Assembly: GCA_963806535.1 (NCBI GenBank)
Contig: CAWDYC010000003.1
Coordinates: 32,001 to 96,000, forward strand
DNA length: 64,000 nucleotides
Origin: Candidatus Bathyarchaeota archaeon
Lineage (GTDB): Archaea; Thermoproteota; Bathyarchaeia; Bathyarchaeales; Bathycorpusculaceae
Direction of reading: 5' to 3'
The notes beneath the pieces are model-generated. The model was not told where the DNA came from. It did no database searches and saw only the letters and a program-made list of their open reading frames with translations. Position 1 is the stretch's first letter. The number at the start of each line of letters is the position of its first letter. Positions 4,614 to 18,044 of the stretch are shown piece after piece. The translations under genes and the position numbers were made by a program.

Positions 4614-5441
4614 TTGAAAGAAGAAAAAATCAAGAAACTTGTAAGAAATCGATACGCCAAAGTTGCCAAAACCAACGGCTCTTGCTGCGCCTCAAATATT
4701 AGCTGTTGCTCAGCCCCGACAAACGAGCAAGTAAGCAAAATGATCGGTTACAGTGAAGAAGAGATGAGTGCAGTTCCAGAAGGTGCCAATCTTGGTTTAG
4801 GCTGTGGAAATCCAACCGCTTTAGCGTCTTTGAAAGAGGGCGAAAGAGTTCTGGATTTAGGGTCAGGCGCAGGTTTTGACTGCTTTTTGGCTGCAAAGAA
4901 AGTCGGCAAGCAAGGCAAGGTGATAGGCGTAGACATGACTCCTGAAATGCTCGACAAAGCTAGAGCAAACGCAAAAAAAGGCAAATACACAAATGTCGAG
5001 TTTAGATTGGGAGAAATTGAAAATCTGCCTGTCGCAGACAATTCAGTCGACGTTATAATATCAAACTGTGTAATCAACCTCGCCCCAAACAAGAAGCGAG
5101 TATTTGAAGAAGCATTCAGAGTTCTTGCTCCAAACGGTCGATTGATGGTGTCGGACATTGTTCTCTTAAAAGAGCTGCCTGAATCCATTCAAGAAAATGT
5201 TGAAGCCTATGCCGGATGCATTTCTGGGGCAGAGCTTAAAGAAAAATATCTTGAACTAATGCGAAAAGCTGGATTCCAAGAGGTAAAAGTCATAGAAGAA
5301 AAGACTTACCCGCTTGAATATATCATAAGTGAATCCACATTGAAAGAAGCAATCAAAATGTCAAACATGACAGAGGAAGAGGTAAAAGAAGCAGCCAACA
5401 TTGTAGTAAGCATAAAGGTATCCGCAGTGAAAACAAAATAG
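4614..5441 (+). CDS. arsM: Arsenite S-adenosylmethionine methyltransferase
   Basis: N-terminal [32 protein letters not shown]. Confidence 0.95.
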
Positions 5442-14328: not shown

Positions 14329-16470
14329 TTGGTGTCTACCGCTAAACCGGCTGAAAAAAATACATCACCGAATGAACAAGAAGGCAAACTAAAACAATTC
14401 TACTTGCAAACTGACGTTAACCGGGCTAAACTCGGATTAATAATACTAATAGCTCCAATACTTGCCTTGCTTTTGAATGATTTTGAGCTATTTGGAATAT
14501 CCACCCAATTTTACGGTCTTTTGGCTTTAAGGCTGGGGCTTCTGGCTTACACTATAATTCAACTTTGGTATCTAAGTCGCATCAATAATTATCGAGCTTA
14601 CGAAAGATCCATCACTGCATGGGGTTTCGTTTCAGTCGCATCTATCATAGCCGTAAATTTAACTAGACCCGCGAGTTTCATTCCAACACAAATAATTACA
14701 GTAATATTGTATATTTTCATTATTTTGCTGGTTATTCCCAACCGCTTTCGCAACCAACTCTTCTTATCCTTAATTGTAACCCTCGGTGAAGCATCAATAA
14801 TTATTTTCTCCGTAAATTCGCTCACACTGGCCACACTAGTAACTAACCTCTTTAGTCTAACTCTCACATTCGTTATAGGCGCATTAAGTTCTTGGCAATT
14901 GAACAGTGACCGCCACAGAGGATTCCTAGAAATTAATGAACGTAAAAATGCGGAGAATTCACTACAGACTTCATTGAGTCGCCTATACAATATTCTTTCA
15001 AGCATGCATGGAAGCATTTTACTTGTATCAGCTGAAGGTCGAGTGGAATTTGCCAACCAATCATTCTGTGACCAGTTCAGCTTAAAAGAATCTCCAACCG
15101 AACTAAAAAACCTCCCTTCAGAAGAAATGATCGAAAAAATAAAAAACGGCTACATGCATCCTGATCAAGAAGTCAGTCGAATAAGAGAATTAGTGGCGAC
15201 TGGAAAAATTGTAACAGGCGAAGAAGTTGCAATGCAAAGCAACAGAACATTCATTCGAGATTTCATTCCCTTCTCTGCAGATGGATCAGCATTTAGTCGA
15301 TTATGGCATCACTTGGAAATAACTGAACGCAAGAAAGCCGAAGAAGCAGTTAGAGAAAGTGAACAACGTTTGAAGTTCCATGCTGAAAATATTCCTCTTG
15401 CGGTGGTTGAGTGGGACAGCAATTTTGTGGTTACTCGTTGGGCTGGCGATGCCCAGAAAATGTTTGGTTGGAAAGCGGATGAGACAGTTGGTAAGCCAAT
15501 AATGGATCTGCATTTGATTTACGAACCAGACATTCCAATAGTTGAAAAAACAATGGCAAAGCTAACTAGCGGTGAAACTAAAGTTGTTTCTGCAAACCGC
15601 AATGTAACAAAAGATGGCGATGTGATTCATTGTACATGGATTAACTCAGTTTTGCTTGATCCGAGTGGGAAAATGGTTTCAGTTCTTTCATTTGTTGAAG
15701 ATAATACTGCAACGAAAAACGCAGAAAAGGCACTTGAAGAAAATAACCGAAACTTGGAGAAGATTGTTGAAGAACGTACGAAGCAACTTAAAGATACTGA
15801 ACGATTAGCGGCTATCGGCGCCACCGCAGGCATGGTTGGACACGATATTCGTAATCCGCTGCAAGCTATCATCGGCGATATCTATTTAGTTAAATCAGAA
15901 TTAGCTTCAACACCTGAGAGCGATGAGAAAATAAGTGCGTTAGAGAGCCTGCAAGAGATTGAAAAGAACATTGATTATATTAACAAGATTGTGGCTGACT
16001 TGCAAGATTTTGCTAAACCACTTAGGCCTCACGAAGATATAGCAGACTTAAAACTTCTTATTGACAGGTTGCTGGAAAAAAATGGTTTATCCCAGAACAT
16101 AGCGATAAAGGTGGCTGTGGAACCTGACGCTCAAAAGGTTGTGGCTGACGCCGATTTCATAAATCGGATCTTATACAATTTGGTTATTAATGCTTCTCAA
16201 GCTATGCCTGAAGGCGGAAAACTAACCATAAAAACATACAATGAAGCCAGCGACGTTGTTATTTCGGTTAAAGACACAGGTGTAGGTATCCCAGAAAAAG
16301 TTAAAGATAAGTTGTTTACCCCGATGTTTACAACTAAATCCAAGGGGCAAGGCTTCGGCTTAGCCGTTGTAAAACGTATGACGGAAGCGTTAGGCGGGAC
16401 CGTAAACTTTGAGAGCCAAGAGGGGAAAGGAACAACATTCATTATACGTTTACCCCAAAAAAACAATTAA
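14329..16470 (+). CDS. Membrane-bound PAS-domain sensor histidine kinase
   Basis: About 6 TM segments, two PAS domains, GHDIRNPL H-box, N/G1/F/G2 boxes. Confidence 0.92.
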   Translation: MVSTAKPAEKNTSPNEQEGKLKQFYLQTDVNRAKLGLIILIAPILALLLNDFELFGISTQFYGLLALRLGLLAYTIIQLWYLSRINNYRAYERSITAWGFVSVASIIAVNLTRPASFIPTQIITVILYIFIILLVIPNRFRNQLFLSLIVTLGEASIIIFSVNSLTLATLVTNLFSLTLTFVIGALSSWQLNSDRHRGFLEINERKNAENSLQTSLSRLYNILSSMHGSILLVSAEGRVEFANQSFCDQFSLKESPTELKNLPSEEMIEKIKNGYMHPDQEVSRIRELVATGKIVTGEEVAMQSNRTFIRDFIPFSADGSAFSRLWHHLEITERKKAEEAVRESEQRLKFHAENIPLAVVEWDSNFVVTRWAGDAQKMFGWKADETVGKPIMDLHLIYEPDIPIVEKTMAKLTSGETKVVSANRNVTKDGDVIHCTWINSVLLDPSGKMVSVLSFVEDNTATKNAEKALEENNRNLEKIVEERTKQLKDTERLAAIGATAGMVGHDIRNPLQAIIGDIYLVKSELASTPESDEKISALESLQEIEKNIDYINKIVADLQDFAKPLRPHEDIADLKLLIDRLLEKNGLSQNIAIKVAVEPDAQKVVADADFINRILYNLVINASQAMPEGGKLTIKTYNEASDVVISVKDTGVGIPEKVKDKLFTPMFTTKSKGQGFGLAVVKRMTEALGGTVNFESQEGKGTTFIIRLPQKNN

Positions 16471-16579: not shown

Positions 16580-17143
16580 ATGAGTGAAAAGAAAAAACCA
16601 GCCGAAGGAGAAGCCGCTTCTAAAAAAACCGAATTATCAGTCACAAAGAAGAAGCCAATTGCTATAAGTAAACCCCAAAAGAAACCAGTCACCTTAGCTA
16701 CACCTACCCCCCAAGACCTCTACGAAGCCTTTGACGACACCTTTGAAAAGTTCAGAAACGATTTTGAAGACCTCCTGTTTCCTTCAACTTGGGCTAACAC
16801 CTTTTCAATAATGCCCGAAACCCGAGTTCCAACCATGGATCTAGAAGACAATGAAAAAGAATATCTCTTAAAGGCGGAGATGCCTGGCTTCAAAAAAGAA
16901 AACATCGAAATCGATGTGCAAGACAACTATGTAGTAATATCTGGTGAGGTAGGTTGGAAATATGACAAGAAGGAACATGAATATCTCTGTAAGGAACGCG
17001 CGTGCAAAACATTCTACAGAACAGTTGACCTGCCTGAGGAAGTAGATGTCAACGGAGTCACCGCCAACCTAAATGATGGTGTACTGGAAATCTGTCTTCC
17101 CAAAAAAACACCAAAACAAAAAAGAAAAATCAAACCAAAATAA
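16580..17143 (+). CDS. Hsp20/alpha-crystallin small heat-shock protein
   Basis: AEMPG..KE.I, F.RTVDLP, A.LNDGVLEI.LPK. Confidence 0.92.
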   Translation: MSEKKKPAEGEAASKKTELSVTKKKPIAISKPQKKPVTLATPTPQDLYEAFDDTFEKFRNDFEDLLFPSTWANTFSIMPETRVPTMDLEDNEKEYLLKAEMPGFKKENIEIDVQDNYVVISGEVGWKYDKKEHEYLCKERACKTFYRTVDLPEEVDVNGVTANLNDGVLEICLPKKTPKQKRKIKPK

Positions 17144-17246
17144 AATAATCATCCTTTTTTCTTTTTATTTGCTAAATCCGTTTTGTTTTGGTTTCTTTAA
17201 TCTTATAAACTTCCAAATGTCTCAAATAGAACACAAGTATAGTTAT

Positions 17247-17274
17247 TTGTGACATAAAAGTCACAATATTTAAG
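17247..17274 (+). promoter_or_regulatory. Palindromic operator TTGTGAC-N6-GTCACAA abutting TATA box TATTTAAG
   Basis: Perfect 7-bp inverted repeat 17247-17266; TATA 17267-17274 is about 27 nt upstream of the structured region. Confidence 0.6.
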
Positions 17275-17300
17275 AGTGTGCCTCCACAATAACATATTTA

Positions 17301-17521
17301 CAGGCTGGGGAGCACGCTTTAAGATGTGCGTTGAGGCACGGAGTGTATCAGTTAAAACAGCTGAAAATTGATATGCGACTAAGACCTTACCTCCACGGGC
17401 TGGCCATAACAAGCGTTTCAGAGAGGCTTTGAGCTGTGTGGTCAAAACGGTGAAAGACCATGCGGCGATAAAGACATTGCCTCATTGGACCGTGGACGCA
17501 TTAAGGCTTAGACTCAGCCTG
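17301..17521 (+). ncRNA. Putative structured ncRNA (~220 nt, pseudoknotted), family not recognised
   Basis: Terminal helix 17301-09/17513-21 plus at least five further helices; G-U pairs work only on +; upstream TATA; no credible ORF. Confidence 0.65.
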
Positions 17522-17684
17522 CTCTCGCTAATTTTATGACGGATTCCCGTAGTCACAATATTAAAATAAGATTTCAATGTAAACTAATTAATTTAAGCAT
17601 GAAATACTCCTATTCCGTCAAAGTATGTGTGAATGATGCAGTTTTGAGGATCAATCGAGTGTTTTTTGAAAGAGGCATAAGTAG

Positions 17685-18044
17685 ATGTCAGAAAAAATAT
17701 CAATAAGAGAAATATTAAAAGCAATTCTAAACGAGATCAAAGGCGTTATTAAAGAATATATGAATGAGGCGGAAACTGCCGTTAAGAAGCGCCTAAAAAA
17801 ACTGATCATTTTCAGCGTAGTTACAACTGTTTTGATCTCGCTGGGGATTTCATTTGCGGGTACTGCTTCGCTGTTCGTACTTGTTGGTTCGTTCTTCTAT
17901 CTTCATCAAACAATGCCCACGTGGGAAGCCTTGTACATTATGGCTATCACCTCAGCCATTATAGCAGCTGCATTGTTCTTTGGGCTCTATATCATAATAA
18001 GAAACCAATTGAGGTCTTCCCAAAAGCCTGGTAACCAAAAATAA
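17685..18044 (+). CDS. Two-TM membrane protein (phage-holin-like/DUF1469-like architecture)
   Basis: Amphipathic N-terminal helix, two TM segments, basic tail. Confidence 0.55.
   Translation: MSEKISIREILKAILNEIKGVIKEYMNEAETAVKKRLKKLIIFSVVTTVLISLGISFAGTASLFVLVGSFFYLHQTMPTWEALYIMAITSAIIAAALFFGLYIIIRNQLRSSQKPGNQK

Follow-up and report, generated by a model that had tools for sequence, protein, structure and literature searches.

The conserved RNA described here, which lies on the plus strand of a 64,000-nucleotide stretch of DNA from Candidatus Bathyarchaeota archaeon (contig CAWDYC010000003.1; the whole stretch is called the window), is most probably a circular, modular non-coding RNA made from a stand-alone gene. 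To this identity and its biogenesis we assign a probability of about 0.8. In the proposed pathway, a short precursor would be transcribed from its own TATA promoter, roughly from 17298 to the T-run at 17532. The ends of this precursor would pair as helix P1, and a GAGC/GCUU helix together with the bulges ACG and AGA would complete a BHB motif. A tRNA-splicing endonuclease, as the presumed enzyme, would cut both bulges (positions in Table 1), and an RtcB-type ligase, likewise presumed, would close the excised piece to a circle of 196 nt. This circle would form a three-way junction composed of the P2 hairpin and two paralogous modules of ~80 nt. In each module, a bend at a 1x8 internal loop would let the 11-bp distal stem fold back, and the terminal loop would pair with the basal bulge.

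Table 1. Features of the RNA gene and its product, in positions of the window.
Feature	Position	Strand	Pairing or basis
Promoter region	17249-17273	+	sequence; upstream consensus of 92 homologs
TATA-like ATATTTAA	17266-17273	+	GTCACAA just before
P1, 5' strand (outer BHB helix h, precursor only)	17301-17309	+	pairs with 17513-17521
BHB central 4-bp helix H, 5' strand GAGC	17310-17313	+	pairs with GCUU 17506-17509
BHB bulge A, ACG	17314-17316	+	cut C17315/G17316; junction ...GGCTTAG/GCTTTAAG...
Excised, circularised RNA, 196 nt	17316-17511	+	G17511 joined to G17316; contigs of four runs
P2, 5' strand GCUUUAA	17316-17322	+	pairs with UUAAGGC 17501-17507
Module 1	17326-17407	+	helices 92-95% paired, most pairs with double changes
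Module 1 P3'	17326-28/17405-07	+	
Module 1 stem a	17329-32/17394-97	+	
Module 1 stem b	17333-41/17385-93	+	
Module 1 internal loop	A17342 opposite 17377-84	+	single A opposite 8-nt strand
Module 1 stem c	17343-53/17366-76	+	
Module 1 terminal loop	17354-65	+	
Module 1 pseudoknot	17358-17361/17399-17402	+	loop CAGC with GCUG in basal bulge; 98.8% paired (82-RNA alignment)
Module 2	17413-17499	+	covariation
Module 2 P3	17413-17/17495-99	+	5/5 pairs with double changes
Module 2 stem a	17419-22/17484-87	+	stems a and b: 11/13 pairs with double changes
Module 2 stem b	17423-31/17475-83	+	see stem a
Module 2 internal loop	A17432 opposite 17467-74	+	single A
Module 2 stem c	17433-43/17456-66	+	10/11 pairs with double changes
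Module 2 terminal loop	17444-55	+	
Module 2 pseudoknot	17448-17451/17489-17492	+	loop CGGU with ACCG; 99.1% paired
BHB helix H, 3' strand GCUU	17506-17509	+	
BHB bulge B, AGA	17510-17512	+	cut G17511/A17512; junction letters
P1, 3' strand (precursor only)	17513-17521	+	alignment
T-run	17532-17535	+	likely archaeal termination signal; from sequence

An earlier reading of this DNA from its letters alone (the sequence-only reading) had proposed a compact, structured non-coding RNA that is transcribed independently from the plus strand. This proposal is borne out by an own promoter, by homologs, by covariation and by evidence at the RNA level. Homologs do exist, and 93 distinct RNAs, nearly all from MAGs labelled Bathyarchaeia or Bathyarchaeota, were extracted from BLAST loci and from the loci of a pattern scan. 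BLAST gave matches in 20 of 61 related genomes as well as a second copy in the RNA's own genome (78% identity, ~166 kb away). For the scan, a degenerate pattern covering the last module and the 3' scaffold was searched in a collection of species-representative genomes, which returned 103 loci. Titles were available for 80 of these rows: 67 named Bathyarchaeia or Bathyarchaeota, two bore other archaeal labels and 11 were bacterial, ten of the last being chance matches without the 5' half. The eleventh, a contig titled as a Limnocylindrales bacterium MAG (L038), contains a complete two-module RNA at 4863-5094 and is probably mis-binned archaeal DNA.

The RNA is a tandem duplication of a module of ~80 nt, of which relatives have one, two or three: among the 93 RNAs, one module is present in six, two in 82 and three in five, with predicted circles of 106-108, 195-209 and 289 nt, respectively. 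Alignments were made of 18 and then of 82 two-module RNAs, and RNAalifold put the GAGGC strands inside each half. The whole-RNA model of the 82 sequences contains 80 pairs with 91.6% of cells paired, compared with 83.4% after column shuffles and 30-41% with slid partners. Double changes are present in 60 of these pairs, a count which, like all covariation counts given here, is inflated by the relatedness of the sequences, and none of 500 shuffles reached any of the five measures used. The module model, built on 135 non-redundant modules, has 27 pairs that are 91.1% paired (74.2% when shuffled), and 25 of them show double changes. On the level of aligned sequences, the fold can thus be regarded as established by covariation.

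Viewed from the outside inwards, a module starts with a short enclosing helix (P3) and a 7-nt bulge on the 3' strand, followed by stem a of 4 bp, stem b of 9 bp with a weak middle, the 1x8 internal loop, in which one A stands opposite the eight bases G-N-N-N-A-A-G-A, stem c of 11 bp and a purine-rich terminal loop of 12-13 nt. The pairing of this loop with the bulge is 99.4% complete over the 135 modules. All four pairs of this pseudoknot are found in 133 of them, in ten letter combinations; the second pair is AU in 66, GC in 62 and GU in seven, and the fourth is CG in 90, UA in 29 and UG in 16. For module 2, the letters in homologs are CGGU/ACCG or CGGC/GCCG, the last pair being UA in 37, CG in 25 and UG in 20 of the 82 RNAs and unpaired in none, and distant members add UGGC/GCCA and UGGC/GCUA. 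Since stem c (11 bp) roughly matches the combined length of stems a and b (13 bp), the terminal loop would reach the bulge if the module were sharply bent at the 1x8 loop, and we infer a fold-back geometry of the module from this.

K-turns follow a consensus of a 3-nt bulge and then tandem sheared G-A/A-G pairs, beside a stem closed by C-G. The 1x8 loop was considered as such a motif and rejected: the G that would have to form the G-A pair has a Watson-Crick C partner (GC in 122 of 135 modules), the next pair covaries in Watson-Crick register and the long strand holds eight unpaired bases, not 3+2. Also rejected was a pairing of the module 1 loop with the tail of module 2, as CAGC and ACCG are not complementary and an RNA with a single module has no tail other than its own. 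The same holds for an ACAU/AUGU hairpin between the modules, which the window's own sequence cannot form and instead of which P3 covaries.

The modules are autonomous and compact, contain many invariant unpaired bases and are present in one to three copies, which suggests a multivalent binding RNA. Tentatively, the circle may therefore serve as an exonuclease-resistant multivalent scaffold or decoy, where each module, as a guess, would hold a single copy of some conserved partner in the cell; if we were to guess further, a protein would be a more likely partner than a small ligand. An RNP scaffold, which had been put forward from the sequence, may be its role. A further-reaching and rather unlikely proposal is a new class of circular RNA, whose repeated pseudoknotted modules would be autonomous recognition or catalytic units. 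The product would then be an aptamer or ribozyme array, ring-closed by the tRNA-splicing machinery and acting in trans as a sensor, a buffer or an RNP core specific to Bathyarchaeia.

Unlikely, in our opinion, is that the modules are catalytic or ligand-sensing units, for example a self-cleaving ribozyme or a trans-acting aptamer array, and not protein-binding sites. The compact pseudoknotted fold with its invariant unpaired bases would suit such units, and the tandem modules resemble tandem riboswitch aptamers. Nevertheless, no ribozyme or riboswitch of Rfam is matched and no gene association hints at a ligand. For the ribozyme that had been suggested from the sequence, nothing in the analysis points to one.

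That the RNA resembles no familiar family was confirmed, as Rfam 15 gave no match at gathering score across the window. Between 17150 and 17700, only four matches were obtained at E<=10 (E 2.9 to 8.2), all of them in the flanks of the RNA, and nine homolog loci gave none at E<=0.1. The Rfam 15 covariance models for SRP, RNase P, riboswitches, ribozymes, HEARO and raiA do not match the RNA; since the modules are contiguous in the DNA, a permuted relative of an Rfam family would still match locally. The fold itself is far more stable than expected by chance: for the plus strand of 17301-17521, a minimum free energy of -81.2 kcal/mol was obtained, and none of 200 dinucleotide shuffles, at -62.05 +/- 4.11, was as good (z -4.66). 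On the minus strand, z is -2.18 and five of 200 shuffles are as good.

Several known kinds of RNA were tried and discarded. ARAGORN found no tRNA gene in 17000-17900, which speaks against a tRNA or a tRNA intron, as no tRNA gene surrounds the excised part. Box C/D sRNAs, some of which are circular in archaea, carry a C box with the consensus RUGAUGA plus a D box, and the C box RTGATGA is absent from the 3.2-kb locus L001. The replacement of a housekeeping RNA was dismissed, as the genome has a canonical SRP RNA (145.3 bits) and a 5S rRNA (69.8 bits) elsewhere. An endless reading frame on the circle would meet 11-19 stops in four turns, in every frame and on both strands. A search of the full text of papers found no prior description of the RNA. 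For the archaeal RNase P RNA model, the same genome gave a weak match only (22.1 bits, gathering score 84; G000:C9:153724-153912, 189 nt), and this lineage may possess a reduced or divergent RNase P RNA.

The ends of the excised piece are set by the BHB motif, in the hBHBh' form a central 4-bp helix with 3-nt bulges on opposite strands, according to PMC7714728 and PMC3978253. The 4-bp GAGC/GCUU helix H with the bulges ACG and AGA corresponds to this definition, and P1 provides the outer helix h. Over the 82 sequences, the 10 pairs of P1 have 96.6% of cells paired and double changes in eight. Helix H is 100% paired, with GC in 43, GU in 25 and AU in 14 as its first pair, and the bulges read A-N-G and A-G-A in the homologs. 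Both bulges are cut at the same position, between the second and third base, and the cut position (G17511 to G17316) is unambiguous because only one G precedes CTTT in the DNA. The inner helix h' is short: in the canonical register, it has only the pairs C-G, U-A and U-A and then a U-U mismatch, and it is weaker still in L132-type relatives. Judged by its letters, the motif is near-canonical, with a strict outer half and centre, and it recurs in distant families despite wholly different P1 letters.

The letters of the internal loop between P1 and P2, which resemble Kt-7, had raised the possibility of a K-turn; this was dropped once the junction showed the loop to be the BHB motif. Helix P2 is nearly invariant (95.3% of cells paired), with rare compensatory changes in L019 (CG at 22-243) and in the L132-type RNAs. 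Within the circle, P2 can form a 7-bp hairpin with a UUAG cap (17508-17511), and the ligation junction lies at the 3' edge of this loop, between G17511 and the first stem base G17316. Since P2 and helix H use the same 3' bases, they cannot coexist.

The enzymes presumed for this pathway are encoded in the same genome. Two tRNA_int_endo paralogs were found over the cut-off (96.1 and 71.7 bits), and RtcB is present with a match over the cut-off in two adjacent pieces. The two-subunit splicing endonuclease of TACK archaea accepts relaxed motifs, as stated in PMC7714728, and the two paralogs are, by their sequence matches, consistent with such an enzyme. The RtcB pieces (G000:C3:346685-347996) cover profile positions 1-335 in a frame of 404 aa and 335-426 in a frame of 93 aa; this arrangement may reflect a frameshift or an assembly error, or the gene may indeed be split.

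The circular junction is present in RNA. Metatranscriptome contigs of four runs (X1, X2, X3 and X6) from four studies were matched to 17100-17800 at 88% likeness; these runs are part of 24 RNA runs listed, the other 20 of which had shares of 0.04-0.06. In contigs of X1 (one), X2 (one) and X6 (two), 17502 is followed by TAAGGCTTAG and then by 17316, and X3 shows the same joint from 17499. The junction contigs are mostly from relatives rather than from this exact genome. Loose contig ends, too, run from TAAGGCTTAG into GCTTTAAG in several sequence variants, and what follows in each variant corresponds to a different homolog (L004 and L062, for instance). A 226-nt contig of X1 consists of 17448-17502, the ten letters and then 17316-17477, and so exceeds a full turn of the 196-nt ring.

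The RNA libraries could contain DNA; the 16-letter junction was found in none of 142 genome loci. Contig cover in the four runs is absent at 17148-17315 and beyond 17512, and no contig of these runs shows the ligated flanks (17315 joined to 17512). For X6, the summed contig word depth is 714,219 inside the RNA and 1,504.5 at the 3' end of hsp20, depths which cannot rank expression. A metagenome scan with the 16-letter junction returned at least 119 loci, which are chance matches except for one (L222) among the matches listed. This public contig of 1339 nt carries the circular junction in its last ~75 nt (minus strand), fused to unrelated coding-like sequence, and looks like an assembly or cDNA chimera.

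It is improbable that the circle is only a processing intermediate that is re-opened, with a linear and possibly permuted RNA as the working molecule. Circular pre-rRNA intermediates arising at BHB motifs are the textbook case for this (PMC7714728 and PMC12918454), and the data come from assembled contigs rather than raw reads; such contigs can give neither strand, ends, level nor the circular or linear fraction. Against this stand the junction-spanning contigs in all four runs examined as well as the retention of P2 as a hairpin whose loop borders the junction, and no conserved second cleavage signal was noticed.

Very improbable is a linear RNA of ~220 nt that keeps a closing helix and a pseudoknot across its domains, as had been drawn in the sequence-only reading. 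The closing helix 17301-09/17513-21 does covary strongly (97.6% of cells paired in the 82 homologs, double changes in seven of nine pairs), and the linear sequence folds well. However, the RNA contigs join 17511 to 17316, so the product is a 196-nt circle without the closing helix.

Only three of the seven helices folded by hand survive covariation in the 82 homologs. Apart from the closing helix, these are the hairpins 17343-53/17366-76 (94.7% paired) and 17433-43/17456-66 (87.7% paired), with double changes in 10 of 11 pairs in each. The other four fail, which also speaks against the linear molecule, and are replaced by helices within the modules and by two loop-to-bulge pseudoknots. The hairpin 17312-29 is 74.9% paired and its last pair is open in 73 of 82. 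The long-range helix 17379-89/17502-11 reaches 82.3%, with a double change in one pair only and two pairs open in 55 and 43 of 82, and its continuation 17392-98/17490-96 reaches 69.4%. The proposed pseudoknot 17332-38/17478-84 is 80.8% paired, with two positions open in 31 and 45 of 82; its complementarity is only apparent, because the two halves of the RNA are paralogs of each other and every strand has its partner inside its own copy.

At the locus, the conservation of the RNA's own promoter and the lack of gene linkage have been shown, as would fit a stand-alone gene. The TATA box noticed upstream is supported by its conservation: in 92 homologs, a purine-rich element and then a TATA-like box precede P1, and the consensus AAAAtATTTAT starts ~31 nt upstream of the first base that pairs in P1. 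Downstream, a run of at least four T within 40 nt is present in 55 of the 92 homologs, and one of at least five T within 100 nt in 59. The GC content, said to be higher than in the flanks, is 0.505 at 17300-17499 versus 0.255 upstream and 0.33 downstream. A palindrome, GTGAC-N6-GTCAC (17249-17264), lies directly 5' of the TATA box and is also found in the closest homologs (TTTGTGACAGAAATGTCGCAAT type); it could be a binding site for a regulator.

With respect to the neighbors, the hsp20 gene was correctly recognized (HSP20, 84.4 bits). The supposed holin-like gene does encode a membrane protein of 119 aa, but its holin similarity is sub-threshold (Phage_holin_3_6, 23.7 bits, cut-off 28.4). Neighboring genes vary between lineages, and no cluster of flanking genes is shared by more than 10 of the 93 loci. 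The orientation of the neighbors is random; upstream, it is the same in 42 cases and the opposite in 42. No conserved place before a functionally related gene, as would mark a cis-regulatory element or riboswitch, was found among the 93 loci and 91 downstream neighbors. The least credible explanation is an intron or a cis-regulatory leader, for which the flanks, once spliced, or the mRNA that follows would be the useful product. Examples would be a BHB intron in a 5' UTR, as known from Haloferax (PMC7714728), or a riboswitch or thermosensor that acts on hsp20 or on the gene of the membrane protein. This explanation can draw on a same-strand ORF that starts ~165 nt downstream in both copies of the own genome, but the two downstream genes are unrelated (the weak holin-like protein and NAC), downstream neighbors are in the opposite orientation in 47 of 91 loci and in the same in 44, the commonest Pfam family among them reaches only six of 91, and T-runs follow the RNA. 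Further upstream, an ORF of 713 aa (14329-16470 of the window), whose translation, judged by eye, resembles a membrane-anchored PAS sensor histidine kinase, lies ~110 nt before the hsp20 gene, which in turn precedes the RNA.

In riboswitches of the SAM-I type, a kink in a helix allows a loop to reach a distant strand and to form a pseudoknot with it. The Bathyarchaeia RNA would be similar in that a bend, here inferred, at an asymmetric internal loop returns the terminal loop to the base of the domain. In contrast to these folds, it is circular, has no conserved gene downstream and its internal loop is not a standard K-turn. CsrB and RsmZ are protein-sponge RNAs with multiple sites in short GGA hairpins, and, like the Bathyarchaeia RNA, they combine repeated units in variable number within a single stable molecule. 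Here, however, the units are folded domains of ~80 nt, and the molecule is a circle in an archaeal host.

The archaeal circles known to form at BHB motifs are intermediates of rRNA, introns of tRNAs, an intron in one 5' UTR and a rearranged SRP RNA. In Thermoproteus, a permuted SRP RNA becomes functional through BHB cleavage and circularisation (PMC4731332); like the Bathyarchaeia RNA, it has a dedicated gene that encodes neither rRNA nor tRNA, a BHB-cut transcript and a circle as the stable product. In contrast, it is a rearranged member of a universal family, whereas the Bathyarchaeia RNA matches no Rfam family, is built of one to three repeated modules and coexists with a canonical SRP RNA elsewhere in the genome. 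Circular pre-16S and pre-23S rRNAs and the circular 23S rRNA share the processing stem formed by the flanks, the BHB inside it and the excision and ligation (PMC7714728 and PMC12918454). The Bathyarchaeia circle, on the contrary, measures 196 nt, lacks similarity to rRNA and has its own promoter and scattered stand-alone loci. With circular tRNA introns (PMC7714728), it has the presumed enzymes and the junction chemistry in common. Unlike them, it is not surrounded by a tRNA, its "exons" are a leader and a trailer only, and the excised part is the conserved structured part. Its biogenesis, by BHB cleavage and ligation, is of a kind already known from pre-rRNAs, tRNA introns and the Thermoproteus SRP RNA; the RNA itself is of no known family.

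If this is true, a dedicated gene family would exist that serves no evident purpose other than to make a small circular RNA with its own fold. The architecture of one to three modules offers a natural handle on what each module binds. Furthermore, the precursor would be a compact natural substrate for studies on BHB recognition and RNA circularisation.

The RNA was found only in Bathyarchaeia. Within this uncultivated and globally abundant archaeal class, it is kept across several families, and most of the genomes sampled from the genus carry it. The module covariance model detected four modules at two loci in the own genome and matched 34 of 41 genomes of the genus and 26 of 30 of its high-quality genomes; seven of the 41 had no match under the strict filters, and these counts, like those for the class and the phylum below, are lower bounds. 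In a sample of the class, 25 of 151 genomes matched, distributed over 13 of 79 genera and very unevenly by family. A sample of the phylum gave seven matches in 151 genomes, all within the own order, and under the strict filters none in genomes outside the class; as these filters are strict and only part of the candidates was scored in the large searches, such absences are weak. Some genomes carry several RNA genes. One of them (G052) has five modules over four loci, and another (G015) has two RNA genes ~860 nt apart, at C18:56942-57125 and 57800-57984, plus a third one elsewhere.
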